Assembly: GCA_002269645.1 (NCBI GenBank)
Contig: NIVC01003783.1
Span: 46,363-84,138 of the forward strand
DNA from: Macrostomum lignano
Taxonomy: Eukaryota
Direction of reading: 5' to 3'
DNA length: 37,776 bases
How positions within the stretch are numbered: position 1 is the first letter of the stretch; every line of letters begins with the position of its first letter. The position numbers and the translations under genes were made by a program. The notes below the pieces were generated by a model. That model saw only the letters and a program-made list of their open reading frames with translations. It did not search any database and was not told the origin of the DNA. Of the stretch, positions 5,956 to 36,281 are shown one piece after another.

Positions 5956-7818
5956 CTAGAGCTGAGTCTCAAAAGCGGATGCCGAGGCGGCGACAGCGGA
6001 GCCATCGGCCAAGTCATCAGCGGTGGCAGCGGCAGAGGCATCTGGCGGCACCAGCAGCTTCAGGTGCAGTAGGTAGTCTCTGATAAGCCTGGCCGCGTGC
6101 AGAGCCCGCCGAGACTGCAGGGCCAGCTCGCCGGCGGGACGAAGCCGCAGCTTCAATAGACGCCGGCCCTCGGTGTTGAAGGCTAGAACACAGTCCAGGC
6201 GGTAGGACAGGCAGGGCGGACTGGCGGGGTTGGAGCCTGGCGCCAGCAGGTGAATGCCGGACTCGCCAACCGCCAGAGTGTGGCTCGAATCCGCTTCGAC
6301 TGACAAGGCAACGCCGGCTGCGCAGGAGCCCGAGGCGGCGAGGACGCGAACGTCAAACTGAGCGCAGCCAAACAGCGGCTGGCAGGATCGGGAGCAGGCT
6401 TCGATAAGCATCAAATCGAGATTAAAGCGCTGATCGGCTTCGCTGACGCTGCCAGTTCCGCTGTTGGAAGTCTCTGCTGCTGCTGCGGCGGCTGTAGCGG
6501 CGGCGGCAGCAACTCGCCGCGGCGCAACTTGATCGCGCCAGGCCAGAGGCAGGACGCGAAGAGCGGCCGAGGGAGAGGAAGCTTCGCGGGCGGCTCGAAT
6601 GCCGCACAGTTCGGCGGCTAGCCGGGCATCCAACGGCAGCCGTCCATCGTAGACATCGGCGAGGCACTGCTGGGCGAGCAGGGCAGCCTCGGCCCGGTCG
6701 CCGGCGCCAACCAGCGGCGGAACAAAAAGGCGCTTCCGACAGACCAGGCGAACGGGACTTGAAGCGCTGGGTCCGGCCAGCTGGCAGAGCCGCTCCCAGC
6801 GGAACAGGACGTCCCCGATGCAGTCAGCTGGTCCGGTTGGCCGCTCGAGCCTGCCAAGCTGCTCGTAGAGTGCCCAGCCGACTGCGGAGGCGGCCAGAGG
6901 GATGCGGGCCAGCACGACCGTCAGAGCCTCTGAGCCGGTCAGGCGGGCATGGTAGTCAAGCCGGCGCTGGTCACCGTCAGGCAGCTGTACTGAGGCTGAT
7001 GCGGCGGCGCGGCGGTACAGCGCTAGAAGCTCCGGCGCCGATGGCGGACACAATCGCGGAGGGCGGCCAGTTAGAAGGCAACGATTGAGACAGCGCAGGC
7101 AGAATTGTGCGCACCTGCCAGCCTCGGTGTGGCCTTCCAGAGCTGCCCGATCCAGGTGGCATCGCAGGTAGGCTAGCACAAGCGGTGCGGACGGCGCGGC
7201 AATGGCGCACAGGGCGCACAGCAGCCGGAAGGCGCGCTCGCAGGCGGCCGACTGCCAGTCGCAGGTGGTCTGGCGCACCAGCAGCAGGCAGAGCTCGCTG
7301 CAGAGAGGCCCGCCGCCAATGCAACGCAGCAGGAGAGCCTGGGCGGTGCGCACCGCGGTCGGCTCGGCCAGAGATTCGACGGCCTCGAGTAGGCGCAAGG
7401 CAGCGGGAAATTTCGCGGCGGCGGCCGCCTCCTGAGCGTCAGCATGGATCAGAAGTGGCCGAGCGTCCGGTCGACCGGAGCGGCGTCTGGCCCAGTAGGC
7501 CGGCCGGTAGCTGGCCGGGTCGTGGCGCCGACCGCTGCTCCCGTTGCTGCCCGGACTGCCACCGTCGGCACCGCTGACGACGGCTGCAGGCGGCGTTGTC
7601 TGGCGTCGTTTCAGCGAGCCGCCGCAGGGTCCTCGAGCCGGCGCTGGCGGTGCTAGCAACCCGGACGCGGCAAGGTCGCGCCTGCAGCGCTGCACATCCT
7701 CGGCTAGGCGCTGCCTGTCGGCATCGGTAGTGGCGACACGTTGCAGCAGAAGCTGGCTGGCCTGCTGCAGCCGGCCGGTTGAATTGGCACAGTTGCCATG
7801 CGGATGCTGCTGCTGCAT
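5956..7818 (-). CDS. MyTH4-FERM domain protein (PLEKHH/MAX-1-like C-terminal module), single coding exon, about 620 aa
   Basis: MyTH4 motifs: ELCLLLVRQTT, RAFRLL, YLRCHL, AQFCLRCLNR, R..PPS..EL. FERM motifs follow: VQLPDG, GWALYE, DVLFRWE, RKRLF, QCLADVYDGRLP, LFGCAQF. The listed 7872 start is TTG and the first ATG is at 7818. An in-frame stop and an acceptor (tattattaacAG, 7895-7894) lie just upstream. Confidence 0.85.
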   Translation of the reverse strand: MQQQHPHGNCANSTGRLQQASQLLLQRVATTDADRQRLAEDVQRCRRDLAASGLLAPPAPARGPCGGSLKRRQTTPPAAVVSGADGGSPGSNGSSGRRHDPASYRPAYWARRRSGRPDARPLLIHADAQEAAAAAKFPAALRLLEAVESLAEPTAVRTAQALLLRCIGGGPLCSELCLLLVRQTTCDWQSAACERAFRLLCALCAIAAPSAPLVLAYLRCHLDRAALEGHTEAGRCAQFCLRCLNRCLLTGRPPRLCPPSAPELLALYRRAAASASVQLPDGDQRRLDYHARLTGSEALTVVLARIPLAASAVGWALYEQLGRLERPTGPADCIGDVLFRWERLCQLAGPSASSPVRLVCRKRLFVPPLVGAGDRAEAALLAQQCLADVYDGRLPLDARLAAELCGIRAAREASSPSAALRVLPLAWRDQVAPRRVAAAAATAAAAAAETSNSGTGSVSEADQRFNLDLMLIEACSRSCQPLFGCAQFDVRVLAASGSCAAGVALSVEADSSHTLAVGESGIHLLAPGSNPASPPCLSYRLDCVLAFNTEGRRLLKLRLRPAGELALQSRRALHAARLIRDYLLHLKLLVPPDASAAATADDLADGSAVAASASAFETQL

Positions 7819-8327
7819 CTGGCGCTGCCCGCCGGGCCTGGCTAAGAGGCCCGAGGCCGGATCAGTTAACAACCGCTCGCTGACCCGTTAGAGCTGTTAA
7901 TAATATAAATGGCGGACCCCGAGGCCAGCCTGGTGCAGCTTCAATACAGCAAATTAAGTGGAGCAGCGACAGACAAAGCTAGCGGAGTGCCAATGCGTTG
8001 AGACCGGCAGGCCGGAGAGGACATAAATTGGATGGCCAAGAGGGGGGGGTAGAGAGTTCGAGGCTGGGGAAGGATTGGCCGAGAGCCAATAAGAGTCGCA
8101 TCATAGGTGAGAATAGACAGGTCCCAAAAGTGACTACTAGTAATACTATATGCCGTGTAAAGGCAACGCGTACACTCATTTTTTAATTACTCCCTCTCTA
8201 AACTGCTGTACAGTTCGATGCGCAGCGAATCATTGCGAGCCAGGTGAGAAAGATGGAAAGTAAAAAAATCTCATACAGCCAAATGTTACACACACGCGAG
8301 CTGCTGGAATGGGGAGGGCGAGTGTTT

Positions 8328-8699: not shown

Positions 8700-9660
8700 C
8701 TATATCTCTTATTCTGCTAATCCAAATAACATCATTTGCACAGATTTATAGTGGCAACTCTCTTCTTCATATTAACTTTAACATGGAAACAAAAGTTATA
8801 AACTAAAATATAGCAGGACCAAGAGGTTCGTGCCCTGACTAAAATCCTCAGATCTAATGGTTACCTTCTCAGTTTTGTCAGCCGCATTATCAATGTGTCT
8901 GTCACCAAGAAAGTTTCCAGCAATATGAGATCCAGGCAACCAGAGATAGATTCTTGGGATGCTCAGTTGGTTCTCCAATTTTTTGGTAAACATTTCACTT
9001 GGCTTCAGGAAAAAACTTGAGAAAATGTTCAGCAAATGGCTTAAGTGCACTGTTGGGATTGTTTTTCACACTGAAAAGATTGGTCACTATGCTAGCAAGC
9101 TCAAGTCAGCTGTTCCACTTGCTCTAAGGGCTGGTGTTGTTTACCAATTTTGCTGCTCTGAGGATCAGTCCATTTCCTACATTGGAAAAACAAAGCGACA
9201 CCTGCACACTAGAGCTAGGGATTATTGGCTAAAAAGCTATGCAATTAATGACCATCTGCTTGTTTATAAAAAATTTTGTGACAATGAACTAATTCAGCTC
9301 TTTAATTGCTTGATAGGTGCAAATTTGACCATAAGCTTAAGATTATTGAAGCTTTGTATATCAGAATGCACAAACCCAACTTAAATGTGCAGCTTGCTGG
9401 CAATGGGATAGAGCGTGAACTAAGAGTACTGTGAGCAGAGCTATGCCTTTTTTTCTCTTCCTTCCTTCATTATGTACTTGGCACTTTTGAAATTCTACTG
9501 GACTGTTTTGACCCACTTTTGGACTTTAAAGTTTGTTTTGCTTAAATATATTGGTGTTGTGAATTATAGGTTAATTGAATTTGCCCTGATGATGTCTTAT
9601 GTTTGACAAAATGCATTGGCTAGAAAGAAAGTTTTATTTTTATTTTGTTTTTGTTGACAT
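8700..9660 (+). mobile_element. Penelope-like retroelement (PLE) 3' remnant: degenerate RT end, GIY-YIG endonuclease and 3' UTR
   Basis: Fragments in shifting frames: NSLLHINFNMETK (RT, like NSLHxNIxFTME), EVRALTKILRSNGYLLSFVSRII (thumb), GVVYQFCCS..SYIGKTKRHLHTR (GIY-YIG), KLKIIEALYIRMHKPNLNVQ, then stop at 9432-9434. Frameshifts, stops and an internal deletion are present. The left boundary is approximate. Confidence 0.88.
9583..9620 (+). ncRNA. Degenerate minimal type-I hammerhead ribozyme in the PLE 3' end
   Basis: GCC-CTGATGA-T-GTC-ttatgttt-GAC-AAAA-TGCA-T-T-GGC. Helix I is GCC/GGC, the core is CUGAUGA, helix II is GUC/GAC, and helix III is the palindrome AUGCAU. The conserved GAAA reads AAAA. 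Confidence 0.65.
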
Positions 9661-9780
9661 AAAGTATTATTTTGAATTTTAAAATGTGCATCATGTCTGA
9701 CACTTTGTATACATTTTTCATTAATGTGTATTAGAACTTATATTTTATTAGATACTTATAATATATACTTTCCTAAGTAT

Positions 9781-10537
9781 TAGTGATGGATCGAAATTCA
9801 ATTTTGATTTCGATATTCCGAAACTAATTTTGCATCGAAATAATTTTGATTTCGATTTCAAATTTTGACACCATTCATCGAAAATCATTTCGAAATTTTG
9901 TTTTTATTTTAACAATTTAGACATTGATGATCATGCTACACAAGAAAGAAAATCTATAGGAAGTGAAAGGAAGTGCGGTTCAAAGACTCAGTGGGGAGGT
10001 GAGAATTGCCTTTTCTACAAGAAAGATTGTGCGGGGCGGGGCACACACTGTTCCAAGCCTTGTGCTGCACCCACCTCAACCTCCACAAGCCCACTGGCTG
10101 AACTCATTGGCGTGGATTTTAATTGGCTAAAGACTTAAAGCCTTAATGATATAGATATAGGCTACTCGTATCTAGATCTTTAGCTTAAACAGAGTGAAGT
10201 ATAATACAACTTCTACTATATTTCTATGTACGAGTGTATAATACATGCATAATACACCAGCATTTTCTATTTCGTATTTTTAAAAAGTTAAATCTTAAGT
10301 ATTCTGGTTTAAACATATCAAATATACTTTTTATAAAACATGTAAGCTCATACATGCAGAGACAAGGTGTTAACCTTTTTGCATGATTAGCGAAAAAGTA
10401 AAAATTTGTTAAGCAAAAAAATTTCGATTTCAATTTTGATTTCAATTTTGATTCTAAAGAACCGAAAATTTCGATTCTAAGGAACCGAAAATTTCGATTT
10501 TGATTTTGATTTGAAAAATAATTTCGATCCATCACTA
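9781..10537. mobile_element. Non-autonomous hAT-type MITE, 757 bp
   Basis: Perfect 18-bp TIRs: TAGTGATGGATCGAAATT (9781-9798) and AATTTCGATCCATCACTA (10520-10537). Perfect 8-bp TSD CTAAGTAT (9773-9780 and 10538-10545). Many subterminal TTTCGA/TCGAAA motifs at both ends; no transposase ORF. Confidence 0.92.
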
Positions 10538-11299
10538 CTAAGTATGATATTTCACTAGTGACACAAAACAAAGTTTTAGCATATAAGATTCAATTAGCTT
10601 CCAAAAAGGTCCTTTATTGTCAAGATTGCAAAAAAGGTTCTTTTATTGTTGAATATTTTAATAATACCTAGATATATACTATGTAATAGGCCTCATTTTT
10701 ATGCCATTAGTTTCTAGGAATTGTGCATTTTGAAAGTACTACTATTGTTATACTGTACAAATATTATAAATATTTTCCATAAGCGAAATATTCTGTATAT
10801 TTTGAATATTATCATTTCTTATAAACTGTATTACAAAACTTTACTGTAAAAGGGAGCCTACTGGAGGCCAAGAAAAATGAATCATTTTTGTTTCCATTTC
10901 AGTTTACCTTGTCTGTCTTCTTGCTTCAAGCTTGAAATTGTTACTAGTATTTTGAAATTGAAGTCTTGTTCAATATTTATTGACTTAGTTATTTAGGTAA
11001 AAGTATTAAGAAGCCCCAAAAAGGGCCAAAATTGGGAGAGTTCAAACTGTTCTCAGAAGAATGAGAAATCCAGATCTAAAATCTGAGAAATCGCCTTTAG
11101 AAGGCAGGAATCCTACCACAGGGTAGGCCTAGAGAAGTCTAGACTCAGAGTCTGAGAAACCTGCCTCAGGGCAGAATACCCAGCAAATAAGCTGTGACCC
11201 TCTGATCCCAGGAATGCCCAGGACTGAGAGAATAATATCTTTAGAAGGGTATAGGAATAGGATAGACAGTGCTTAAAGACTGCTCAGGCCAGAAAGTAC

Positions 11300-12829: not shown

Positions 12830-12888
12830 GGCCACTGCATGGTCAGATCGTCATATATTCCACTTCGTCAGATCGGATGATGCAGTGA
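12830..12888. repeat. Fragment of the TGACGAA/foldback repeat family found at 16251-16893
   Basis: ggccactgcatggtcagatcgtcatatattccacttcgtcagatcggatgatgcagtga aligns with 16337-16389 with a few substitutions and indels. Confidence 0.8.
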
Positions 12889-12974
12889 AAGGAGCTGGTG
12901 GACTTAATTCATTTACTATTTACGAAGGTTATGGTTTTCTAAGTAAATGGAAAATTCATTATCATTCATCACAA

Positions 12975-13145
12975 AATGGAAAAGGATTCTGAAGCAGCGA
13001 CAGTAGAAAGCGTTCAGCCGCTATCCAGAAAGATTCCGCACAGCAACTAGTTAATAAGAGAAGACGTCTAGCAGGAAAGGGTACAAGCAAAGGGGAGAAA
13101 AAGAAGCAGCGTCGCAGAAGCAGCGCTATTTGAACTTTTTGACTA
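12975..13145 (+). pseudogene. Remnant of a small Lys/Arg-rich ORF upstream of the Maverick capsid gene (possible basic core protein)
   Basis: One frame reads DSAQQLVNKRRRLAGKGTSKGEKKKQRRRSSAI*, with LAGKG resembling an adenain-type cleavage context. It sits immediately before the capsid ATG. The identity is inferred from position and composition only. Confidence 0.4.
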
Positions 13146-13155
13146 GTACGCTGCG

Positions 13156-14490
13156 ATGAACTTGCTGCTTGGACCAGAAGCGCTTGCGTTGAAGAGTGAA
13201 TTGTCTATATTTGATCCACCCCATGTACAGTCAAGTGTTGTTCAGAGTTAATTTATGCATTATCAACCTCAGCACGGCTTGGCACGAGGGACTCTCAAAT
13301 TGAATTTGAACTGCCTCTTCCTGGTCATTTTTACATCAACGCTAAACTGAAAGTTTTGACAGTTGGATTCCGTGTTCGAGATTCAGACAATACAGCCATT
13401 GACGAGGCCAAAAACTACGTGTCCCTGAGTAATCTTCCTTTGGCGGCTCTTTTTCAAGATGTGCAGCTAAGCATTGGCGACACAGCTCGTCGATGGCGGG
13501 AATTTTCTCTATCCTTACAAATTAGCCTATCCTTACAAATGTCTCTAAGCCTGTTGGAATATGATAAAATTGCTCAAAAGGGACCGATGAAAGCATGGGG
13601 ATTCCGAAAAGACACTACAGGAGCAATGGCCGGATGTTGTGGGCGACTTAAATGTCGGCTGCATGCAACGGCGTGCGCTGATAGCAGACGATAGACTCTC
13701 TGTGTCATTTCGGGCCCGCTGTTTCTCGACATTTTTGGTCAGCCCGGCTATCTAATCTCAAAGCTTGGCTTGCGCATCAAGCTGATCCCCGCAGACGCCA
13801 AGTTTGTGCTACTAGCAGCAAGCATTGGCACGAACGTTCTGAAGGCCTACAATATCGGCATTGTTCGTGCAGAGCTTCGTATGCGCTATATTCAACCATC
13901 GCCCAGTGTCATTGCAGCACACACGGATGAACTGAAACGACAGAACGCTGTGTACCCGATGAATTCACTGCAGATGGGCATTCACAGTGCGGCAGGGAAC
14001 ATCAAGCTACACCAGGAAAAATCTGTTTCAAGGATATGTTCCAAAGCTACTCATAGTAGCGTTTGTGCCAAATCGCGCTTTTAACGCGAGTCTAGAATCC
14101 CTTCAATTTCGTGCATGCACACGTCTCTTTTTTGGTGTGTATGTGAATGGGGAGCCCTGCGCCGGACGGCCTCTTCAACCAAATGTACAGCAAGATGGAT
14201 GCGAAATGGAGTACACTTGGCCACGGCAGCAACCATGGGTCTGTACTTGCGAAACCGAGATATCGGTTTTGACATGGACGTGTACTTGACTGGATACTGT
14301 CTTTACGCAGAAATTTGAGTCCAGAACTCGAAGCTGGTGGTGATCCCCAGCCTATAAAAGTAGGAATGTACGACTGGAGATGAAATTCAGTACCCAGACA
14401 GCGGCAGTGTATAACGTAATAATTGGAAGTGTCTTTTACAGAGAACTGCCATTGACAGAATTTCGAGACGTTGTACCAAGTACATTATGG
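13156..14490 (+). pseudogene. Maverick/Polinton (adintovirus-like) double-jelly-roll major capsid protein, disrupted
   Basis: Reconstructed motifs in order: MNLLLGPEALALKSELSIFDPPHVQSSV, DSQIEFELP..GHFYIN, SNLPLAALFQDV, YPYK, LLEYD..GFRKDTTGAM, GPLFLDIFGQPGYLISKLGLRIKL, YIQPSPSVIAAH, NLFQGYVPKLLIVAFVPNRAF, VYVNGEP, DIGF..Y..GYCLYA, LSP, EMKFS. There are in-frame stops (one just after VVQS, one at 13692-13694) and several frameshifts. The end is approximate. Confidence 0.85.
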
Positions 14491-14520
14491 AATGTAAATG
14501 TAAATGTATGCAATGTAAAT

Positions 14521-15030
14521 CACCTTCTGCATGGACTGACTGACTCTTTTTTGCGCCGCGTATGCTCGTCATTTCAAAGTCGATTCCCTCGAGCTGTCTT
14601 TGTTGGAGTTTTTCCTAGTAACTGTCTACCAAATCTGCCTCGGCCCGAGCTGCAGCCCGGCGTCTGGGATTGCCGAACCTATACCTTCTGATTGCCAATA
14701 CCGATTCGAAAAATCTGCCAGGGAGACTGGAATCAGCACTGGAGGGCGGCGGGTTGGCGAATTTTCAATCCTCTGGGACTGCCTCCATCGCCTAATTTTG
14801 CAAACTGGATGCATGACTACAGCTCAGTGCTGTGCAGGGACAACTTGGACTTTCACGCGTTTTGCAGTTCAGCATCCAATTAACAGTCATTGTGGAGCTG
14901 TTCTATCTACAAACACTCTCTACTGGTTCGGACTTGCGCAGCTTTCTCGACTATTCGCTATCTGGGCACCCAACAAGCCCTGTTTCGTTCGATCAAGCCT
15001 ACAAACATTTGCGACTTTTTTGCGCAATGT
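14521..15030 (+). pseudogene. Maverick/Polinton adenain-like cysteine protease, disrupted
   Basis: Fragments: FVGVFPSNCLP, IANTDSKNLPG (the expected EHW is damaged), GEFFNPLGLPPSPNFANWM, VQHPINSHCG (Gln/Cys catalytic motif), LFYLQTLSTGSDLRSFL. Multiple frameshifts; boundaries approximate. Confidence 0.75.
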
Positions 15031-15652
15031 CGTTTCGCCCCTGTTGCCGCCGGCCTGGCCCGCCGATCGAGGGTTGTGGGAGGTGGCAGGCTTGCGGTCC
15101 AAGGGTTGAGCAAGAAGCTCACCCTTGCTGCTCGACTGCTGATGAGGCTTAATTATAACTGTGATTGATGAAAATTATATACACACTCACTCCAACTCTG
15201 AATATTCGAAAAAAATATGGATGAAATATCATTTTCATTCTTTTTTTCATCTTGGAAACTTTTTTGCGCAGAACTGTCGTAATTAGGAACAATCATTTGA
15301 AAATACACTAAAAGCCCCATTTAAAAGTTAAGTTGGGTGTACAAATATCCTACTAATTACGATTATGACAATACTGATCATTAAGCATCCGTGTAAATTT
15401 ACGGGTGATATATATGAGTGAGTAAACTAATCGCAAGAGGGTATATTAAAGACGTGAAAATGTTGTGGAACCTATGCACAATCACGAGCAGCATATATCA
15501 ATCAATAAAGACCATAAAAATGTGTCCAGTTTATCCGGACATTCATGCCTCTTAAGCCTTGCATCTTAATCTGTTCATTCTCCGCTATTCTTTTTTCCCA
15601 AAACTTCCTTCCTGACTAGCTAGCAGATTTGAAACTTCCCATCATATCCCGG

Positions 15653-15844
15653 CCCTCCATTCTCTCACACTATCATACCCTCCATTCTCTCACACTATCA
15701 TACCCTCCATTCTCTCACACTATCATACCCTCCATTCTCTCACACTATCATACCCTCCATTCTCTCACACTATCATACCCTCCATTCTCTCACACTATCA
15801 TACCCTCCATTCTCTCACACTATCATACCCTCCCTTCTCTCACA
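15653..15844. repeat. 25-bp minisatellite, about 7.7 copies
   Basis: Unit ccctccattctctcacactatcata, with starts from 15653 to 15828 at 25-bp spacing. Confidence 0.97.
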
Positions 15845-16094: not shown

Positions 16095-16620
16095 GTGGTA
16101 GTCGAGTTAGTGTAAACTATTTTTTTGTTTTTATTACGAGTCACTAGCTACGGCAAGTAGAACCGATAGATCGAAGGTTTTATCAATCGGGACGACAAAA
16201 CGACTGGAATTCATGTAGGATTCCAGGTAAATTATTTTACAAAGCTATTTCGTTCCTAGTCACTTCGTCATCTGATATGACGAAATGAAATATGACGATC
16301 TGACCAGTGACCCATGAATTCACCTTTAATTGATACGGTCACTGGTCAGATCGTCATATTCCATTTCGTCATATCGGATGACGAAGTGACCAAAAGCAAA
16401 GTAGCTTGAAAAATAATATGACGAAGTGACCAAATATTTAGTTATACTGGATACTTCGTCATCAACCAATCAATCTGTGCGTGATTCGAGTTAGTGTAAA
16501 CTATTTTTTGTTTAATAACTAAAAGCTGCGGCAAGCAGAACCGATCGATCGACAGGTTTTATCAATCGAGATGACAAAATGACTGGGATCATTAGGATTC
16601 CAAGTAAATATATTTAATTG
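16095..16620. repeat. Pair of diverged direct repeats of about 140 bp (about 16095-16235 and 16480-16615)
   Basis: Both copies contain tcgagttagtgtaaactattttttg...cggcaag.agaaccgat.gatcga..ggttttatcaatcg..gacaaaa.gactgg..tcat..ggattcca.gtaaat. Confidence 0.85.
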
Positions 16621-16893
16621 CCACAATAATTCACTAATATGATTGGTGGATGACGAAATGACTCTCTTCAGGTAGTGCATGTTAATTAAGATGACGAAGT
16701 GACCATAGTCGAGGTGAGCACCCCAGACACCCAGATGACGAAATGGCAGATGACGAAATGACTAGGAACCATTGATACGATTGGTGGATGACGAAATGAC
16801 TCTCTTCAGGTAGTGGATGCTAATTAAGATGACTAAGTGACCCTAATCGAGTTGGGTTGATGGACACCCCAGAGGACGAAATGACTAGGAACC
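16251..16893. mobile_element. Non-autonomous foldback-like DNA element with an internal long hairpin and TGACGAA subterminal repeats
   Basis: Ends cgttcctagtcacttcgtcatct and agaggacgaaatgactaggaacc are inverted (23 bp, 3 mismatches), with ATTT on both outer sides (16247-16250, 16894-16897). It contains a 54-bp inverted repeat (16259-16312 / 16337-16390) and a tandem duplication of the right end (about 16640-16770 / 16778-16893). Superfamily not assignable. Confidence 0.6.
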
Positions 16894-17622
16894 ATTTATA
16901 GCTTTTTCATGGAACATTCCGGAAGATTGTTTTAGAAAGGGTTCGCGCGGGAATTCAAATTACTATGTATGTATTTGGAATATATTTATCGCGGAAATTT
17001 CAAGAATGAGATATTTACTGCATGGTTGACAAGTTCGCGAATGTTTAGTACAAAGTCACTACAAACATTTTAATATAAATTTTCATCCCTGGCACGTACG
17101 AATGACCTACTGTACTTTTGTATAGCATATGCAGCTATACCTATAATATGGCGTTGTAGTTATATTATACATTTAGCCATGCATATGGTACTGTTTACAC
17201 ATAGACAACTTAAAGCAGTTAATTAACCCTTAGACCTACATGTACTGTACTAATTCGTCCTTGAGTTTGCAGTGTACATGTACAAGCATAATCGTAAACT
17301 TTCTTCTTGGGTTTATCGTTAAATTTAATTTAGAAGAGAAGATCCCTAATTGTTTATATCTTATTTCAAAGTTTAAAATGCATCGTCACAATATAAGGAA
17401 ACGTCAGCAAACGCGGATTATAATTGTTTCTTGGACTTGGGGGTGTGTACGTGGAGGAGGCCGGGAATACTTTTTCAATAAGATAGCTTTTTTCAGACGG
17501 AACAGGGGAATACAATGCTATACGGGTTGCGGTCTAGCTTTTTCATTAGTCCCTCAGGAGGTCAAAATAAAAGTAAGCTCGTATAGGTAGCTCGTATGGA
17601 ATAATTTCACAGAGCAGCTTAC

Positions 17623-17715
17623 CCTGCAGAGGCAGAGCACGTAACAGCTGGCAAACAACTGCAACAGCAGGCTTCCGAGCTGCTCGCGGCTTCTGCCTGC
17701 ACAGCTATGGGTCAT
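17623..17715 (-). CDS. Candidate orphan first coding exon with signal-peptide-like sequence
   Basis: Acceptor cattttatgcAG (17764-17763), ATG at 17715, MTHSCAGRSREQLGSLLLQLFASCYVLCLCR, then a strong phase-0 donor AGG|GTAAGC at 17622. No homology recognised. Confidence 0.25.
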
Positions 17716-18100
17716 GCTCAAACTGAGGTTACTTAACTCTGGGAGTGTGCTGGATTTTGTGACTGCATAAAATGTAGACCCCGGAAACAAAAATTCCTAG
17801 CACAAATTCCAATCACTCGCGAGCAAGCTTTGGAATCTAATAAAACCTAGCATACTTCTTGAACTGGAATATTGAACAGGCTATAATATGGAATCTGCAT
17901 GAACATGGTACGTTTAGCACGTGTCTGCAATTAATCCCCGCAATTAAAATTTCGTCCTCTTCACATCGAAAGGTTATATTTTTAAAACCTCCAAAAGTCT
18001 GATCGTAAGCGCACTGACTTACCAGGCATGCGCACATCCTAGTTTCAGTCTAGGCAGAGGTCAGAGGATTCAGATTAAATATAATCTATGGTAAAATACA

Positions 18101-19824
18101 CACTCCGTTCCGGTCGGCTATGGCCGTAAGTAGAACTTTTAGAACGAGATCTTCCTTGTTTTTTAGCTTAGATCTAGATCTAGATTTCTGGTTTTCCGAG
18201 CAGGCTGGTAGGACTGCACGTGACCGTCCATTCGATCGACGCCGCCCATGCAGCGGTTATAAGTTAAAGCTGAGCGGAACTTCTGCACTGCAGCCGCTGC
18301 TCCACCTCGGGCGATTCGTCGGAGTGGAACTTTTGATGCTGCCTCCTTTGTTTCCAGCAAATACAACCGTTTTTAGACCGCTTTCCTTTCTTTCAACAAT
18401 CTTTGCGGCCTGTACGGCACCCTTGCGCATGAAGCCGACATCATTGGGCGGCACATTTAACTGCCTGAGCTCAATCGGCACGCACGTCAGCTTGTATGGT
18501 GCAAGTCAGATGAGTATCTCGATCCAGAAGGTACTCAGCCAACCGATAGAAACCAAACCACTTGTCGACAAAAATGTGGTCGCCTTGGTTCAACAGATCT
18601 TGGCAAAGCTCGACAACAATTTCTTCGCTGAATGACAGGTCTTCGCTGTGGATCTACATCAAACCTACGATTCTCCTCCGGAGTAGCATGAACTCGAAAG
18701 TTACAAGTAGCCTGCTTCAGACTCGCAAGCACAGTGCAGCTTGATGCCGTACCTGGCGCGCTTAGTTGGAATGTACTGCTTGAAGCCTAGTCGTCTTTGT
18801 AAAGAACTAACGACTCGTCAATACTTATTTCTTCCTCAGGTCTGTAGGTGTTCATGCAGGTGTCACGCAAATTGTTCAAAAATGGACGAATCTTGTACAA
18901 CGGATCACCAGGTGTGGGATCCTCACGGCAATCATAAAAGCGAAGAAAGCCGAGCAATTGCTTGAAGCTGTCAGAGCGCTTCAGGTGCTTGAAAATATGG
19001 TGTCGAGTGGTAGCTGTCAGTACTCCAGTAGTCATTAATTTCAGTCTTCTTGTTGCTGCCCATGTACAGGTACATGCCAATCAACTTCTTGACTTCATTT
19101 GCGTTACATTCGTTCCACTGTGACAAACTCAATGGTAGGTCAACAGCATCCAATGAACGAATTGCTGCCCAGGCTCTACGGTTAGTCCACTTAGCTAGGT
19201 CTTCAAACAACGAATCAGACAGGAATAAACCTAGGAAGAAGGAAGTTGTGTTCTCAACATCGGCAGGCACTATTATTCCAGGATTCAGGCCAGGTGTTCC
19301 GAAAAACTCGATGTCTGTCACCGATGCGTCGTTCCCAACGATAGCAGGCAGCCATGACAACTCATCAGCTACGTCCTCATCAGCGTTGTCCAGAACACTG
19401 ATAAGAGGTAGTCCTCGTCGTCCGATGTCATGAGTTCAGACACTTCGTCCACTTGGGCCATTTCAAGCTCTTTGAGAACTGGTTTTAGTATCCGACTCAA
19501 ACCAGACTGAGACGGATAAAGTATCGGGAACAAAAACTTAAGGAGCCCAAGAACCACTGTAGTGGTTCTACAAGCGCGACTGTATAAGCTGTTAAAAAAG
19601 CTAGACGAGTGAGGAAACAGATCAGCTTCTCTGTTTGAACTGACTGGGGCTAGGAAAAAGCACGTTTCTTATACTGTTCGTGTTAACCATCCCTCTTGTA
19701 CAGGGACCAGTGTGCCTTCAGTCTAGAAACAGGCTACTTAGATGTACAGTTTTGTTTCTTTTTCTGCCCTAGTCGGCTGAATCTTTTAATAAGCATTGCT
19801 TACCATGCCGACCGGAACGGAGAG
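18101..19824 (-). mobile_element. piggyBac-family DNA transposon, degenerate and internally deleted
   Basis: 18-bp inverted repeats CACTCCGTTCCGGTCGGC (18101-18118) and GCCGACCGGAACGGAGAG (19807-19824), 1 mismatch, enclose a piggyBac transposase pseudogene. No TTAA flanks these repeats. Confidence 0.8.
18160..19461 (-). pseudogene. piggyBac (PGBD4-like, DDE_Tnp_1_7) transposase pseudogene
   Basis: Fragments: MAQVDEVSELMTSDDEDY, FFLGLFLSDSLF..LAKWTN, EVKKLIGMYLYMG, DYWSTD, DPLYKIRPFL, ISIDESLV (D1), FKQYIPTKRARYGIKL, LLNQGDHIFVDKWF (D2), YNRCMGGVDRMD (D3), YQPARKT. Frameshifts and stops are present, and the C-terminal cysteine-rich domain is missing. Confidence 0.92.
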
Positions 19825-19960
19825 AAAAAATATCTATGGCTCAGTCAGAAGCCAAATAGTCTATGGTAAGCACGGCTTAAATAAGTAATTAAATAAAAAG
19901 TTATAAGAAATCGTGCATGCGCATGTACTTCATCAACAACCACAGAGCAGAGAAGCCACC

Positions 19961-20122
19961 ATGCTAGAAGACGAAGACGTTGTTAGCAAAGCCTCGCAGA
20001 CGACAAGTTGGCGGACACTGCTGGGCGTTTTCTGCGCGGCTGCCGTTGTAGGATTCTGCGCTACCTCTGCGATCCTCATGCTGATGTCGCGGACTCGAGG
20101 AGCTGCGGGTGTTGCGAATTGA
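19961..20122 (+). CDS. Candidate 53-aa single-pass membrane micropeptide
   Basis: ATG in a perfect GCCACCATG context. MLEDEDVVSKASQTTSWRTLLGVFCAAAVVGFCATSAILMLMSRTRGAAGVAN* has one hydrophobic segment of about 23 aa. No homology recognised. Confidence 0.3.
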   Translation: MLEDEDVVSKASQTTSWRTLLGVFCAAAVVGFCATSAILMLMSRTRGAAGVAN

Positions 20123-21062
20123 ACTGCTGCTGGAAGTCCCCAGCTGGCATGTGAGCTGAACGAAAGTCGATTGACATGCTCCACGCCACAGTTGGTCATT
20201 CTGCAGACAAAATGATTGCCGATGGCAAGCATATTCATTTATCCATTCCTCTGTTGCGTGCATGTGATACACAAATGATACTCACACGATTTCATATTTT
20301 ACCGTACGACATCAATATGATTCAATCATTTTAACATGTCTCGTCTATGAATCACTTCCCCGTAAAGCAATCTGACGTTTGAGAAGACGTTTTCAACGTC
20401 CTGTGCGACGTCGATTACTTTATTAAGAACAAAGTACTTTTGCAAGACTTCCGATTTTCAACCGACGTTAGCAAAAGTACCTAAGATGGGGAAAAACAAC
20501 ATATCTGCAAAAAAAATATATATGTTTTTGTGCGTCTGAATCCGTCATGAATGTAATGTAGAAAAGTACGCATCTGCAATGGAATCGAATGAGTCTAACC
20601 ATATGATCCCTTGCTAAATCTCTAAATATCTGGAACTGTCCTATACATCTTTTTTCTAACTTTGGGAAATCAATTTTACACAGTATGCATGATAAGAAAT
20701 TTATATAATTGTTTTACTTTAGCTACTTGATTTACAAGTATAGTATGTGCAACATTGATTAGCTACATTTCTATGTGACGGAGCTGTGGTTCGTATTTAA
20801 ATGCCCATTTTTATCAACGTATTCAATATTGTTTTGTAATTACCGTACAAAAGCAGATTGTGAAAATGTTTTTCTACAAAATTCATCTGCCTAAAAACTG
20901 GATCATTTGGCAAGTTTGTCACGAATTTGATCAGAAAGAATATTAAAAACACTTCTGTTTGTGGTATTTCTTTAAACCTAAAAAGCCTTTGAAAAAAGCA
21001 GAATGACTGTGACATGTATTAGCAGGAGTTCAAAGTACGTTTTAGACAATCGCGCATCTGTT

Positions 21063-21390
21063 GCAAATCCAACTCAGATTAGATCAGCAAATCCAACTCA
21101 GATTAGATCAGCAAATCTAACTCAGATTAGATCAGTAAATCCAACTCAGATTTGATCAGTAAATCCAACTCAGATTAGATCTGCAAATCCAACTCAGATT
21201 AGATCTGCAAATCCAACTCAGATTTGATCAGTAAATCCAACTCAGATTAGATCTGCAAATCCAACTCAGATTAGATCTGCAAATCCAACTCAGATTTGAT
21301 CAGTAAATCCAACTCAGATTAGATCTGCAAATCCAACTCAGATTAGATCAGCAAATCCAACTCAGATTAGATCAGCAAATCCAACTCAGA
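21063..21390. repeat. 24-bp minisatellite, about 13.7 copies
   Basis: Unit gcaaatccaactcagattagatca with variants (gtaa, tttga, atct), starts from 21063 to 21375. Confidence 0.97.
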
Positions 21391-21437
21391 GCGGTAAAGC
21401 GTGCCAACCCAGTTCTCTGGCCGGTGTTACACTTTAG

Positions 21438-21735
21438 ACTATCCGGGTTTTTTTTTGTCTGGCCCGGATATCCGAACGCACCTACGATATCCGCCCGGAT
21501 ACTGCCAAGCAAAAAACCTGCTTTGTTTTTCTTCCCGGATATCTTGAGCTGCTTTGCATTGTCCGGGCACTTTGAGATGTCTCTCCCGGACATCCTACGG
21601 CACTGACTCTGCTATCCGGCCCGGAGATCACTAGAAGGGAAGTTGTCTTAGGACATCCGACTGTAGGTTGAAAGAGAGGGTCTGTCTGCGGAGACAGAGG
21701 TTTGCTTTAGGACATCCGGCTACTGATATCCGGGG
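21438..21735. repeat. Cluster of about 10 CCGGATATCCG-like motifs, probably a degenerate non-autonomous DNA element
   Basis: Repeated cccggatatccg / ggacatccg / gatatccgg variants in an otherwise AT-rich context. No clean TIR or TSD found. Confidence 0.45.
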
Positions 21736-24434
21736 TTTGGAATAGCAAAATTTCGAAATCAATTTTCACAAAGTAGAAAAAAATTGCTACTTTTTCAATT
21801 GGCAAACATCTGCATCATGCATCTTTAACCGAGTATATTTTCAATCACTATTTCTCATTTCCCATACTCCAAAAAGAATTAAATGAAAGCTACTATTGTC
21901 AACCGAAAAACAGTTTGTTACTCCATTCACCAATCTAATTCGATAAATCAAATACTGGCGATCCGCTGAATGAAGCGTGATGAGTCACAGCCTTCTTCCG
22001 ATGCTTTGATTGGGATGCTTTCCGTTTTCAAATTTTGAGAAACCAGCCAGCTGATAAGTGCGAGCTATTTTTGCCGAGACATTTGATGATTTGGTAGACC
22101 CGCTAACTCCAGCAGCTTAACCTGCTCGTCGCTAAAAACATAAAAAACACTTTATTTAGCGTTACTTTGGCCACCGAATGAATTTTTTTTCCAAAACGTA
22201 GGACGTGGACAAGAAATATATTCCAACTATCTGAAAGAATACTAGGTGTATTATAATTTGCGCAACCCATTACTTTGCGGGTTATTAGCTCGTACACTGA
22301 TATTCATGACATGTACGCTTGTACGGTACTTTTAACGACAGTCTATTATCGATTTATTTTTAGACTGCATCTCATCTGCCCCTCCCAAGCAGTGACCTTA
22401 CATGTACCTGCAGTAATAGGGATACATGGATAATCGTTGCCCGGATTTGTCTGCCGTTACCAACACAGGACTTTACCTCCAGCTGGTGTCACAAATGCTT
22501 TACCGAAGTCGGTATGATATTGAAAATCTCCTCTCATCCTTTGACCCTACGTATTTTCGGTTCTCTCTCAGTACATACAGTATACATACAAGGGTACTAT
22601 CCTACATATTAAATAATTTTTCCTCAAATTGTTTTCATCAAACATTTGATGCGAATAGTTTAATATTAAAAAAATAAGAAGACTAAAATTATGACTAACA
22701 TGATAAGATCGAACTATTGAAGTTATCGAAACAGGCTAATTTTCATTTTGTTTTATTCTTTCAAAAATTAAATTGTTTTTGTTTTACTTAAAGTAGTGTG
22801 CTTTAAAAATGAATATTTAGAATAGCTCTTGATTTTATGCGCAAATTGTCTGCATGCGGGTTGGGCTTGTCTTGGGGCAAATATCAAGGACAACTAAAGC
22901 AGATATGTATGTTACTTAAGTAGTCCTTGGCAAATCTACTGTTAATTGTTCGGAAAAAGGAAAGGTTATTGATTCACAGATATAGTTAGCTTAGCAACAT
23001 AAGTACCACATAGTACTGCTAAATAATATATTCTGTACTGTTGCTTACTTTAATAAATTTCTTTGGTGCACAAAACTGCACAGAATATTTACCGTAAACT
23101 CGCAACACGGGTTCGTGCTGCCTTACTTTCCTCTGAAACAAAAATTCCGCGATCCGCAAAATCAAAAATTCCACTTGAAAGAAGGGCATGCCAGCATGCA
23201 ACCAGAAGTAGAAAGTGACAATAGCTTAAATAGCTTACTTTTTAGGCGCGGCTGGCTTCCATATCCACAGTATTGTCTAAGAATGGGCCAAAACTTGGAT
23301 AGCTTTAGCAACGCAGATACGACATTTCATACGACGGCAAGGCTAACAGGATGCATCGCAACACGGTCAAAATTGCAATGAGTGTACAACAGGCAAACGA
23401 AACGTCAGTCATATTATCCTGTGCGTGTAGTTTCTCACGTTTTGTTTTTATGTCCCCAGCTGTTTGACCTTTTCTACAGTCTGTTCGTTCGCGACATCGA
23501 TTAATTTAAAAACAAAAATAGACAGAAAAATATTTGAAAAATGACCAATCCTTGCATATCCTTAGTCGGTAAATTGAATTCATCCCGTGAGTGCGCGCTC
23601 TCCTGTGCAGCAGCTGGGGCTGCTAGCTGTGGCATCGAAGACTGCTGTCATGATCCTTTAACTTTAACTTTAACAGCAGCTGCGCCCGTGACATTTTACT
23701 TCGATGCAGGTCGCCAAGATCCTTTATACTCCCCTTCCTTGCTTAATCTTGTCCATATAGAATGTAGCCAACAATTTTCTACCGGAGAGTGAGTGTTGTG
23801 GACTTTCATTATCTTGTGCAGCAGGAAAAGTCGCGCAAGGCTGAAGCATCCACTTTGCTGAACTCGTAGATCAAGATTGACTCCGCGCGGCCGTCTGCCG
23901 TCCTTGCAGCGCATTTGCATTTGATTTCCCGGACTTGCCATGCCACGCTGAACCCGACACCCGCTGCTGGCCCACGAACAAATATGCTAATTTCGTGGGA
24001 GAGTCAATATATATTCTGCATCTCTCTCGTTTCGATTCTCTCAAATTTATTTCCGGGCTTCAGAAACTTTTGCCTTTCTTCCACTATCAATCACAGATTT
24101 GCCAACAACATCAAAAAGTTTTTAATCATTTTTCTGACTAAAACTAAAGCAGAAACCATTCGCTTTGTCGCAAAACCTTGATATCGAACTTATAATTTAG
24201 CGGTGAAAATGTCCGTGGAATAATTGTGTTAAAATTCACTACTAGTTTGAAATTGACTACAAAACAAGTTGTTTTGAAATTACAGAAAATTTAACAAAGA
24301 ATAGAAGAGAACTATCTGCAATATTAGTGAACTCGAGATACAATCAAACGAGTCTATGTCCATACGAGCTGAAGAGTCTTATCTTTAGACAGCCAATTAT
24401 TGTCCTTTCAAAGCCATTTGTCTTCTTCAAGAAT

Positions 24435-25775
24435 CTACAATTTCAAAGGCAGCAGGCTCAGAAAAAGCGTCAGGGCCAGCGAAGTCAGCAGCTGAGGCGC
24501 CTGAACGCAGAGTTGAGCTGCCCCGCTGACCTGACAGAGCTCCCGGTTGCCATCATGGCAGGTCAACTGGTGAATGGCGATGCCAAGTGGCCAACTGGCT
24601 GAGTAGCCCCTGATGCTGTCCGTGATTAAGAGCGTTTGGTTATCCGCGAACCTGTAGCCTTCGGTAAGCAGAGTTGCCACGTAGACACTGTTCATGCAGA
24701 GGTACGGCTCGTACTGACCAGTGACTGGTGGATTGACGCACACTGCCCGAGCTGCTTGGGCTAGTTCGCCGACTTTGACGTTCCCTGGAACCGAGCTGGA
24801 CAAGAAGCCTGTTCTATTTAACATAAAGGCAGTGTAGTAGAAGGAGCTGATGGCCACAAAGTTGCCCACTCTGACCCCGGGCGGTTGGTGCACGGGCACG
24901 ATACGCAGCGGGATGCGAGCGATCTCAGAGCACAGACGGTGCCGATCGGAGCCGGCGACGCCAGCTTCGCCTCCCACGTTGATTGAAACTGTGCCAAAGC
25001 TGAAGGTGGACCGGTAGGCCGGGTTAAGGCATGGCGAGGTGTACAGGTCCTTATTTGGTTCGCTACTGTTGTGGCCGAACATGTATAGAGCGGCCTGTGA
25101 CATACCCAAGCCGAGGTAGCTGTGCTGGTGTAGGACGTAAGACTTTCCGCGAACGGTTTTGAACACCTTGCGATATTTGTCGTTCGCGTTGTCAGTTTTG
25201 GGCACAAAGGTGATCTGTGTAGAGCCGCCGCCGAGGTCCAGCATGCCGAAAGTTTCACTGCCGGGCTTATCGAAGGAATCCATGAGGAAGTTGACGGCTA
25301 CCCAACCAAATTCTGCCTCTTCCTGGCCGCTGATGACGCGCACAGCACGCTTATCACTGCTGGGCACCAGGAAGCTGGACCGACGGAGAATCTCGGCAAC
25401 AGCGCGGACGACACGGTCTCGCTGTTCAGGCGTCAGCAGGCGCAGGCCAGCCGTGGCGCGCACGATGACGCTGGTTTCGGCGTGGTACTTAGTGGGAACT
25501 TTCTCAGTAGCAAATTCCATCAACGGCTTGAGGTTCTCACGAAGTCGGGGAAGTGCATTAGGAAAGGCCGATAGGCCGGGATTGACTTTCTCCTCCTCGA
25601 GGCTCTCGATGCGCAGACCAGTGGAGTGGCTGAAGTCGGTGCGGAATGAAAACACATTGATGCGGGTCCCCGTGCTGCCGGCGTCAAGCACCAGAATGTA
25701 CTTCTTATTGGACGAAACAAGAGGCGCTGCTGTCGGCAGCAGGAGCAGCATCGGCAGGATCTTCGGCAGCAGCAT
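24435..25775 (-). CDS. GDA1/CD39-family nucleoside phosphatase (ENTPD5/6-like apyrase), single exon, 446 aa
   Basis: All five apyrase conserved regions: LDAGSTGTR, ATAGLRLL, GQEEAEFGWVAVN, LDLGGGSTQI, SWPLG. It has an N-terminal signal peptide (MLLPKILPMLLLLPTAAP) and a hydrophobic C-terminus. The listed 25814 start is TTG; the first ATG is at 25775, 5 nt after acceptor tttctctacacAG. Confidence 0.95.
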   Translation of the reverse strand: MLLPKILPMLLLLPTAAPLVSSNKKYILVLDAGSTGTRINVFSFRTDFSHSTGLRIESLEEEKVNPGLSAFPNALPRLRENLKPLMEFATEKVPTKYHAETSVIVRATAGLRLLTPEQRDRVVRAVAEILRRSSFLVPSSDKRAVRVISGQEEAEFGWVAVNFLMDSFDKPGSETFGMLDLGGGSTQITFVPKTDNANDKYRKVFKTVRGKSYVLHQHSYLGLGMSQAALYMFGHNSSEPNKDLYTSPCLNPAYRSTFSFGTVSINVGGEAGVAGSDRHRLCSEIARIPLRIVPVHQPPGVRVGNFVAISSFYYTAFMLNRTGFLSSSVPGNVKVGELAQAARAVCVNPPVTGQYEPYLCMNSVYVATLLTEGYRFADNQTLLITDSIRGYSASWPLGIAIHQLTCHDGNRELCQVSGAAQLCVQAPQLLTSLALTLFLSLLPLKL

Positions 25776-27317
25776 CTTTGCTGTGTAGAGAAAGTTTCTT
25801 TCGAAAACGTCCAATGCAGTTGAATTTAGCTAAGCGTTCGGTACAACATATGAACGCATTCATTGGCCAGGCAATTCCCTGCCACTGCGCCTCTCTGTGA
25901 ATGGACCAAAGTCATTGCAAATTTCCTTGTGACATTTTCAACACTACGGTTCACATCACGGGCGTTTCTGCCTGGTTGCGCGCTGGATAAATAATGATAG
26001 TAAGCAGCAACATAAAGCTAAATTGTGCCTGCAGCGGTTGGTAGCTCAGCGATGGGAACTCGACCGAATATCTCGACCTCGGGGTCATAAATTCATAAAT
26101 TAGCTGGTTAGAGGAGAGTTCCCAGTGCAGTGACAGCTATTAGAGTGGCTGATCTACGAAAGTGAGGAGCTAGATACTGCATGAGAATTGCACTTGGTCG
26201 TCAAATTGGATATCCGAATTAGAATAATCGAGTTTTAGAGCAAATGTCACATTTTAAATTGTGCAATTTCCTGTCCAAATTTGTTATTCCGCTTTTTTTG
26301 ATAACCGACACTGCTGGTATGAACGCTTGCCAAGTCATGCTTTGACGGGTCCACGAACTCTGTGAATAGACAACTGCAAACTGCAGCAAATTTGAATGCA
26401 ACACACATACACACTTACACGAAAGACTTGGAAAGCCTGTTTATGGCATGAACCTCTTTATGTTTATCCATGCGCTAGCCAGCCTCGCCTCTCGAGCCAT
26501 AGGACTCCAACAACGAATAAAATCGGGCCGTTGTAAACACAGGCCATGGCTGCATCTGTAATACGCTATTTCCTCAGGTATGAAGCTCAAGGCACTGTCT
26601 AAGCCCATAAAACCTGGCTGCTACACTACCAAATCGGCTTATCAAAGTAAGCCGTGGAAATAAAGTAAAATTACAGCAATCACTCCATCCTAGATTGACT
26701 TTCGCGATCGATTCAACTTCGCTACCTAATTTGTAATTTCATAACATGTTCACCTCATCAAACGAAAAACGAGCGCACCTATGCCCCAATAATATAAGTT
26801 TCAATTTTTCTGACTGAATCACAAAAGGTTGAACGTTCGGAACGTTCGGCATGGGTTCTAATAAGAATCGATTGGAAGCTGTCAATCACCACGCTGTGGA
26901 CTTCTACAGTCAGCAATTCTATAGGTCCTTAAGCAAGATAAACTGCACTTTAGAGGTCGTTGGGGCTCATACCCTCGATGGCCATCTTGGCAGAAAGGCG
27001 GAAAACCGGAGTTATTTGAGTGCAATAAAGTCTTTTTTCAATACGCACCAGTTTCCTGCTTTTAGAAGAAGTTGACGCCACTGTCAAAGAAAAACGATCT
27101 GACCCGTACACAAAATGATCAGCACTCATTCGATGGCAAGATTGTGTGAAAAAAGACTGGTCAAGTTAATTGAGACATGATTCGAAAGTTTGCTGTCTTT
27201 TTTGCTTATTTAGTAATAAAAAATTGCAAAAGCAGTTCAGTAAATTTAATATATTATTTGATTCAATTCGATTTTAAGATGATGGATTAGAGTTGTCGCT
27301 CGTTTTATATTCAATTT

Positions 27318-34562: not shown

Positions 34563-35307
34563 CTCCGTCCTTTTTGCGCGCTTTCAAACTCTGGCTGCTG
34601 TTTATTCAATCCAAGCCCATTTTGCGCTTGTTTTCCATCCATCAGTTTCCGCGTCTCACCGCCTCTCTAAACAGCCTCCGGCATCGCCTGTTGAAAATCG
34701 AACACCGGGACAGAGTGAGTGTTAGTTCCGATACTAGCTAGAGATTTCACGGCGGCAAAGATCAAACGCAACGTTGACTGTGTCAATTGCGTTCATTTGC
34801 TGTTTTCCCTTCTCCTGTCGGCTTTTCCGAATCCTTGGTGGAAAAGTCAGCTAGTAATGTAGGCTGCGGGGCACTACCGGGCGGATCGACTCCATTCAGT
34901 TAAAAACTACAGCTCTAGCCCTGTGTCAGCAGCTCTAACGCAACAAGTCAATGTAGGTCCGTTTTGCGCCCCGAGATTTGCAGGCCCAGCCAGTGCAGAG
35001 CAGCAGAATTCTGATTGGCTGCGAGCGGGACGTCAAATCCTGTTGCACAGAGAGTCAAGTAAAATACACTGAAATTGAACCAAAACATGATAAACATAAT
35101 TCAGCCAACCAACCTGACTTTGCATTGTTAATGCGACAGGAAATTAAATCCAATCGAATACACTGTACGGTTGGCTAAATTTTAAGCATGTCATCTGTCT
35201 CAGGTGCAGAGAGTTCAGGATTTCATTATTATTGGCGAAAATGAATTAGAACAAACAAATGCTTCCAGCATCGGAGACTCAGATCTCCATCGTGGACCTG
35301 CAGCATT

Positions 35308-36040
35308 ATGCTGTCCGGGGAGCCCAGTGTCGCAGTTCAGCAGCAGCCGCACCAGACAGACGTGGAGCAAGCAGCGGCTGATGACGCTGCAGATCCTGAG
35401 CAACTGCAAGCAGCAAGAGCAGCAGGAGCAGCAACTGCAGCCTCAAGCATCCCGACGCCAGAAGCTGTCGCGGCAGGAGCGCGAGAGTTGAAACGACGTG
35501 AACGTCGCCGACGTCGGATCCGTCAGACGAAAACCTTCTGCAAGCGCTTCCTGGCCTTCGTGTTCAGCCACATTGGCCTGTCCGGTCTTATTGTTGCTTA
35601 CACATTCGTTGGCGGCTTGATCTTCCAGGCCATCGAGATGCCGCACGAGAGACAGCTGAAGGAGCGGGTGCGCAGCTATCAGGAAGCCTGGCTCAAGGAG
35701 CTGCGGCTTGTCTGCTCCGAGCCAAAGGTCGCTACGCAAGCGCCGACTACCACAGTGGGCGACACAGCGACAACAAGCGCGACTGCAGTTGGTCTGCTGA
35801 ACATCAGCAGCGGTGAGGGGCGAATCCCGATGGCGGCAGCACTGGCAGAGGCGGCCACTGCGACCGAGACCAGTCAACAGCTGCTGCTGCGCGTGCTCAA
35901 TGACACTGTAAACCGCATAGTTGCCAACGTAACCGTGTTCGTGAAGGACGACGGCTGGAATGGGAGCTTGTCTGAGCGGGATTACACTTGGAACTTTGCA
36001 GGGGCGCTGCTGTTTGTGGTGACAGTCATCACCACCATTG
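35308..36040 (+). CDS. Two-pore-domain (K2P/TWIK-family) potassium channel, first coding exon (N-terminus, M1, cap, P1); the rest is outside the window
   Basis: Basic cluster KRRERRRRR, M1 FLAFVFSHIGLSGLIVAYTFVGGLIFQAIE, and pore helix WNFAGALLFVVTVITTIG. The exon ends at G|GTGAGT inside the TIGYG filter, a typical K2P intron position. A probable 5' UTR intron lies at 34715-35203. Confidence 0.92.
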
Positions 36041-36281
36041 GTGAGTTGCCTAATTGGTGGGATCCTTAGCATTCTGTGAGGTGGCAGTCATCACCACCAT
36101 TGGTGAGTTGCCTAATTGGTGGGATCCTTTGCATTCTGTGAGGTGGCAGTCATCACCACCATTGGTGAGTTGCCTAATTGGTGGGATCCTTTGCATTTTG
36201 TGGAGGTGACAGTCATCACCACCATTGGTGAGTTGCCTAATTGGTGGGATCCTTAGCATTTTGTGAGGTGGCAGTCATCAT
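36023..36281. repeat. 62-bp tandem repeat spanning the K2P exon/intron junction, 4.2 copies
   Basis: Unit cagtcatcaccaccattg|gtgagttgcctaattggtgggatcctt(a/t)gcatt(c/t)tgtgaggtgg, starting at 36023, 36085, 36147, 36210 and 36272. Confidence 0.97.

Follow-up and report, generated by a model that had tools for sequence, protein, structure and literature searches.

Features of the window

The window, the whole stretch of 37,776 nucleotides that was analysed (C3783:46363-84138 of the Macrostomum lignano genome, G000), contained at 12889-15357 a segment that we identify by its sequence as the rightmost 2.5 kb of a Maverick/Polinton. The G+C content was 47% over 13-15 kb of the window versus 37-40% on either side. 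On the plus strand, the relic is composed of a remnant of a basic core-protein gene (12889-13146), which has lost about its first 20 codons in the alignment to family A, one of the related families A-E of the same genome; a major capsid pseudogene (13156-14496, 3′ end approximate), assigned through frameshift-aware alignment and the fold of an intact relative; and a pseudogene of a clan CE cysteine maturation protease (14487-15056, ends approximate), assigned through alignment and a family profile. The right terminal segment or terminal inverted repeat (TIR) occupies 15046-15357, with an uncertain inner edge; it ends in CTACTAAT and holds a GG-rich ORF. A piece of a MITE end of about 60 bp (12830-12888) abuts the relic and marks its left break, while on the right a target-site copy TACGAT is expected at 15358-15363 from the 6-bp duplications of target sites (TSDs) in the sister families. 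Its counterpart would have disappeared together with the left end.

The sequence-only reading had placed three consecutive plus-strand remnants, broken by stops and frameshifts, at 12975..15150. These were found in the order claimed and the module does lie there, but the core gene starts upstream, with homology from 12888, and the element reaches 15357. The view that only the structural module survives holds for this locus: no other Maverick gene was detected in the window, in the 20 kb upstream or in four stretches flanking the sister loci (157 query ORFs), although the lost genes exist elsewhere in the clade. Searched alone, none of nine window fragments matched Pfam at E≤1, so the assignment of the relic depends on intact relatives; a profile of the protease family matched the pS273R protease of African swine fever virus (ASFV).

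Outside the relic, an open frame of 643 codons that encodes MyTH4 and RA-like domains (5959-7887, minus strand, 67% G+C) represents a host gene that is also present at the sister loci, and a single-frame gene at 24438-25829 on the minus strand encodes a GDA1/CD39 nucleoside phosphatase (E 8e-68). An ion-channel exon was found at 35245-36066 on the plus strand, presumably similar to a two-pore potassium channel. The window also contained a remnant of a DDE_Tnp_1_7 (piggyBac-like) transposase (18974-19435, minus strand), a weak GIY-YIG remnant (8950-9381, plus strand) and numerous minisatellites across 15-37 kb.

Capsid gene

Through frameshift-aware alignment, the capsid, protease and core remnants all aligned to intact family A proteins. 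The capsid remnant at 13156-14490 covered residues 1-440 of the 441 in family A with 261 of 439 positions identical (59%, score 1136), and its frame was interrupted by a stop at 13249 and by 11 frameshifts, the first near 13295 and the last near 14352. Five of six invariant positions and 20 of 22 listed near-invariant positions were kept, and the identity to the capsids of families A-E was 53-59%. Compared with the family A gene, the identity by codon position was 0.71/0.78/0.40, which indicates that the families diverged under selection, before the insertion. The distance to the intact families thus lies mostly at third codon positions, and to call the fragment old was an overstatement.

The family A capsid was modelled from its natural sequence with a 61-row alignment (the query and 60 of 66 hits) at a pLDDT of 87.8. 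The model matched the capsids of Sputnik, an iridovirus, PBCV-1 and mavirus at E 5e-16 to 1e-13, and also MELD-virus, virophage and adomavirus models. Identities in the fold and protease matches to virophages and large DNA viruses were 7-14%, and one uncharacterised protein labelled as bracovirus reached 26%. The capsid of this intact relative is thus a double jelly roll (DJR) in the predicted structure, and the relic gene, through its 59% identity to the modelled protein, would have coded a capsid of the same type. As a sequence, either alone or as the 61-row profile, the intact family A capsid found no match in Pfam or PDB. Among its 66 hits, the best named protein (fish) showed 35% identity, and unnamed proteins showed 86, 84 and 48%.

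A quick IQ-TREE search was carried out with 76 rows, comprising three relic copies (with X at the breaks), 11 own-genome capsids from 96 matches and 62 of the 66 hits; the four left out were partial or over-long. The relic formed a long branch in a 13-row clade together with families A-E and two unnamed proteins (SH-aLRT 98), so that the capsid phylogeny that had been called for puts it inside this clade. The quick tree singled out no one family as the sister of the relic.

Protease and core genes

The protease remnant at 14533-15020 shared 80 of 157 residues with family A in the frameshift-aware alignment, with a score of 265 versus 31.7 ± 3.6 (maximum 41) in 30 shuffles. Its aligned part contains four frameshifts. 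Of the catalytic residues, Gln and Cys are kept, the place of His is hit by a frameshift and Asn stands in the place of the acid. The capsid and protease motifs quoted earlier are present, but EFF.PLG carries this Asn where ten of ten aligned proteases have Asp. A profile of 10 natural proteases matched ASFV pS273R (6lj9, E 1.3e-10), the best solved match, with His, acid, Gln and Cys aligned. Peptidase_C5 was matched weakly, by three of the 10 members and under the Pfam cut-off (best E 0.032), and adenovirus protease was absent from the 15 PDB matches of the family profile at E≤10. The name adenain is therefore right at clan level only, and the protein is classified by sequence as an adenovirus-like cysteine maturation protease at the level of clan CE.

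The core gene aligned to family A at 12888-13126 with 24 of 76 residues identical and a score of 63, versus 26.9 ± 3.2 (maximum 35) in 30 shuffles. It is broken by one stop (12990) and at least one frameshift (near 13078), and its YEGYGFLS motif and FxLF C-terminus agree with the family alignment. Eight intact homologues are rich in Arg and Lys, contain GG motifs and are coded next to the capsid gene; the family had no relevant Pfam match. These features suggest that the basic protein is a core protein. Its Gly-Gly motifs may be cleavage sites like those of adenovirus pVII/pX.

Ends of the relic

The right terminus CTACTAAT at 15350-15357 contains the (ACT)2 motif with one mismatch. The segment 15046-15355 matched eight other loci at 82%, with a common end base followed by CTACTAC/TACTACT. 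Six of the eight are copies of a single larger repeat, and there the segment forms the left end of another relic. About 870 bp inside that relic lies a PolB fragment of only about 45-60 codons, oriented as in intact elements. Being a right end here and a left end in other relics, the segment behaves as a terminal inverted repeat. The intact families end in TACTACT, 816-1343 bp past the capsid gene. Compared with the TIR of family A, the terminal segment gave no alignment beyond chance (score 33, shuffled maximum 37).

One matching locus, at C362, was considered as the TIR of an adjoining family E element and rejected, since C861 has the identical segment without that element. A stretch of 45-50 bp from the terminal segment (15043-15092) recurs at 86-91% at three loci without a Maverick end or gene nearby.

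The GG-rich ORF had been proposed, speculatively, as another small core protein. We discarded this candidate: its sole Met is residue 39 of 46, it matched only terminal DNA of relics and nothing in the intact elements, and it is very likely terminal-repeat DNA, not a gene, to judge from these comparisons. The spacer between protease and end held no ATG ORF above 49 codons in four intact families.

The homology on the left begins at 12888; this lies some 20 codons inside the core gene and directly follows the MITE end of about 60 bp. This piece is 88% identical to several loci, including a full MITE copy at C291 and window 16337-16772. A search of the window, of 20 kb upstream and of the sister flanks found no left TIR. 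Judging from this adjacency to the MITE end, the left break would most simply be due to a deletion, which is its likely cause. The idea of transport of the relic within a MITE is unsupported: the full MITE at 16337-16772 is missing from both sister loci. This 435-bp MITE, with many copies at 90-97%, was inserted beside an older related repeat.

Intact sister families in the same genome

A DNA search of the genome, with 21 of 21 candidates scored, found two loci at 95-97% (C1135 and C3264). Seven further loci, those of family A, matched part of the capsid gene at 67%, and there were 11 short matches at the 3′ end. Family A comprises at least seven loci (C1975, C4619, C4948, C2158, C137, C1704 and C4976) that are 99.7-99.97% alike over 3.3 kb; it is a young Maverick family, and some of the seven may be alleles or assembly duplicates. 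Its element is 17.46 kb long and has TIRs of 191 bp; its ends read AGTAGT..ACTACT, and the copy at C1975 shows the TSD CATGTT. The pPolB (PF03175, E 2.5e-25) also carries an endonuclease VII domain (PF02945, E 3.8e-10; L027:3701-8134), a pairing common in arthropod elements. The further genes are those of a deoxynucleoside kinase, a dUTPase, an A32-like ATPase, a 340-codon ORF behind the ATPase, which from its position and a motif is the putative minor capsid (penton), and an integrase (rve and chromodomain); the rve and A32 matches were below the Pfam cut-offs (Pox_A32 E 0.0034). The structural genes encode a basic protein of 171 codons, a capsid of 441 codons and the protease. No OTU match was found in family A at E≤0.5.

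With the family A capsid as query, at least 96 matches were found (95 of 479 candidates scored). Families A-E (e.g. C1975, C2529, C593, C3758 and C362) have the common order core-capsid-protease-end, and all five contain the ATPase. Perfect 6-bp TSDs were detected in three families (A, CATGTT; B, CAGGTC; C, CTTATA). Besides A, the clade includes at least four multi-copy families, and more distant groups were seen at about 30%. The Maverick/Polinton identity is thus upheld, as the families around the relic possess pPolB, an integrase, an ATPase, TIRs and TSDs of 6 bp.

The search for intact copies in the source genome, also suggested earlier, revealed these related families with TIRs and TSDs and no intact member of the relic's own sub-lineage: with the relic fragment as query (150 of 277 candidates scored), no intact copy was found, and identity fell from 98-100% at three loci to at most 71% in short pieces and at most 62% over the full length.

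Two rearrangements were noted in family A. At C4619, the flanks at 71 and 17528 differ (TATAAC on the left versus CATGTT on the right) and each matches the flank of another copy, which suggests that the assembly is chimeric here or that copies so nearly identical have recombined. At C4948 (1-14584) and C2158 (1-1738), a different Polinton-like element, with a divergent PolB, a protease, a DJR-like ORF and an end CTACT, takes the place of the left arm up to a point just before pPolB, likely as a nested insertion.

Considering these families, we might ask whether the parent was the polymerase-less capsid segment of a two-part Polinton that has lost little at the left. The family C element at C593 (L105-L106) has TIRs, the TSD CTTATA and an integrase while most of its pPolB is missing (deleted from about residue 287 to 1428), and the relic with the PolB fragment has the same end sequence as ours. 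However, a full-length pPolB was present in cis, with ATPase and integrase, in four of the five sister families examined (A, B, D and E), the end-sharing relic has only its short stretch of PolB codons, and the relic in the window is broken inside the core gene at the MITE piece and misses even the integrase. A two-part parent is for these reasons very unlikely, and a complete parent that lost its left part remains the strongly preferred reading.

Sister loci, age and decay

C1135 and C3264 carry the flanks and host genes of the window at 97-98%, and are therefore alleles or duplicated chromosome copies; the relic is likely one insertion seen at three sister loci. Window 14502-15635, with the protease and right end, is missing at both. 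Private changes in the three relic copies amounted to 9, 19 and 17 substitutions in 1595 columns plus 12 indels, and the flanks were similar. Among the 12 capsid breaks of the window, the stop and three of the frameshifts occur in each of the three copies, two breaks are common with one sister only, four with the other (one ambiguous) and two are private. All three pairings thus have common derived changes, which indicates recombination among the versions or mixing in the assembly. Only about a third of the breaks predate the split, so the insertion is probably at most about twice as old as the divergence of the sisters; by this rough count of small numbers, its age would probably exceed that of the 2-3% divergence by little.

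Over 17200-20600, C1135 and C3264 do not differ by any substitution, with 58 changes private to the window and 0 to either sister. The neighbouring stretches do not show this pattern, which would fit a haplotype mosaic or an assembly collapse. The alignment to the sister loci was interrupted at 9660-10641 and 20641-22391, which are probably polymorphic insertions.

Domestication of the capsid or protease gene by the host might be considered from the near full-length capsid homology, kept at all three sister loci, and from raw, uncorrected pairwise pN/pS values below 1 (0.34 and 0.49). This signal was gone in a spectrum-matched test, in which 10 of 32 variable sites were synonymous versus 8.0 ± 2.4 expected (P 0.26), and selection on the capsid frame was rejected as the synonymous share is at chance level. 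Every copy has 8-11 frameshifts and one to three stops, the four breaks common to all included, and the protease is deleted at two of the three loci. The relic decays neutrally, and a domesticated gene is excluded for practical purposes.

The excess of frameshifts over a single stop could also be produced by long-read assembly errors in an intact element. Contigs from the independent runs X1, X3 and X4 matched long pieces gap-free (e.g. 14236-15676 with two other letters and 0 gaps), 10 runs contained 77-92% of sampled words, and nearby host ORFs had 0-1 indels among the sisters, while the indel share of non-coding flanks was like that of the relic. The breaks are real and not a sequencing artefact, which leaves hardly any room for an intact element here. 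The depth of the X1 contig over the protease was 40 versus 90-125 elsewhere; depth is not copy number, and the lower value is in line with the loss of the protease at two loci. Run X11, guessed to be RNA, covers non-coding parts too.

Comparison with known elements and viruses

Polintons are described as encoding a DJR capsid, penton, ATPase and protease (PMC4028283), and Mavericks are defined by (AGT)2..(ACT)2 end motifs and a 6-bp TSD, with 134 intact elements and the vast majority of copies degraded (PMC8097293). The ends and TSDs observed here agree with these definitions. With animal Mavericks/Polintons (adintoviruses; Orthopolintovirales), the relic shares the DJR capsid, cysteine protease and (ACT)2 end, and the sister families further share pPolB, rve integrase with chromodomain, ATPase, TIRs and 6-bp TSD; the relic differs in that only the right 2.5 kb is left, and the sister families in their dUTPase and deoxynucleoside kinase genes. 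Compared with families A-E, the relic is alike in gene order, capsid identity, end motif and clade, but is a separate sub-lineage whose terminal sequence is unalignable with that of family A. Compared with ASFV pS273R and adenovirus protease (clan CE), the motifs NTD..PG.HW, F(D/N)xxG and Q..CG are in common, whereas the relic has a broken His position and a changed acid position.

Adintoviruses are divided into Alpha and Beta classes, with a chromodomain in the integrase and degraded copies widespread in animals; Alpha is characterised by OTU and pfam03175 PolB, and virion modules are of the Mayetiola or Terrapene class (PMC8502044). Orthopolintovirales insertions in flatworm genomes (bioRxiv 10.1101/2025.04.19.649669) and a Maverick expansion in Dugesia (bioRxiv 10.64898/2025.12.11.693146) are reported. 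A pPolB2 may contain HNH and VSR inserts, the HNH insert being unique to pPolB2 of terrestrial nematodes and oomycetes (PMC10748475). The available part of PMC6431247 contained nothing specific, and our literature search, with repeat libraries (Repbase, Dfam) and supplements outside its scope, found no description of this clade.

A chance entry of another DJR virus (adenovirus, virophage or integrase-less Polinton-like virus) would fit the fold and protease matches to virophages and large DNA viruses, but the low identities of those matches given above (26% for the one bracovirus-labelled protein), against 53-59% to integrase-bearing Mavericks of the same genome with the same gene order and end motif, make it exceedingly improbable.

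Proposed history of the relic

We conclude with high confidence that the relic is the broken right end of a Maverick/Polinton, which was likely inserted once and likely lost its left 14-17 kb through a deletion up to the MITE fragment, and that it is now decaying neutrally. According to the sister families and the literature, the parent element would have been inserted by its integrase with a 6-bp target duplication and replicated in a protein-primed manner by pPolB from the terminal repeats. Its icosahedral DJR shell would have been filled by the A32-like ATPase, and its basic core protein trimmed by the protease. After this single insertion the left part would have been deleted, and the remaining right end, now drifting without constraint, itself provides none of the parent's functions.

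We might speculate, with considerable reserve, that a sixth sub-lineage of the clade has left the relic as its sole trace with capsid-coding sequence, having been brought into the germ line by a fairly recent separate infection and not copied from the resident families. As several sister lineages in this genome are intact and young, the clade may then circulate as viruses.

The novelty of the relic is low: it is an ordinary genomic fossil, one more extinct branch of a Maverick clade that is itself unnamed, and alone it matters little, degraded Mavericks being common. Its three versions can serve as a small clock of neutral decay rich in indels and of the mixing of haplotypes. For asking whether Mavericks of animals form particles, the intact and nearly identical sister families offer the more useful resource.
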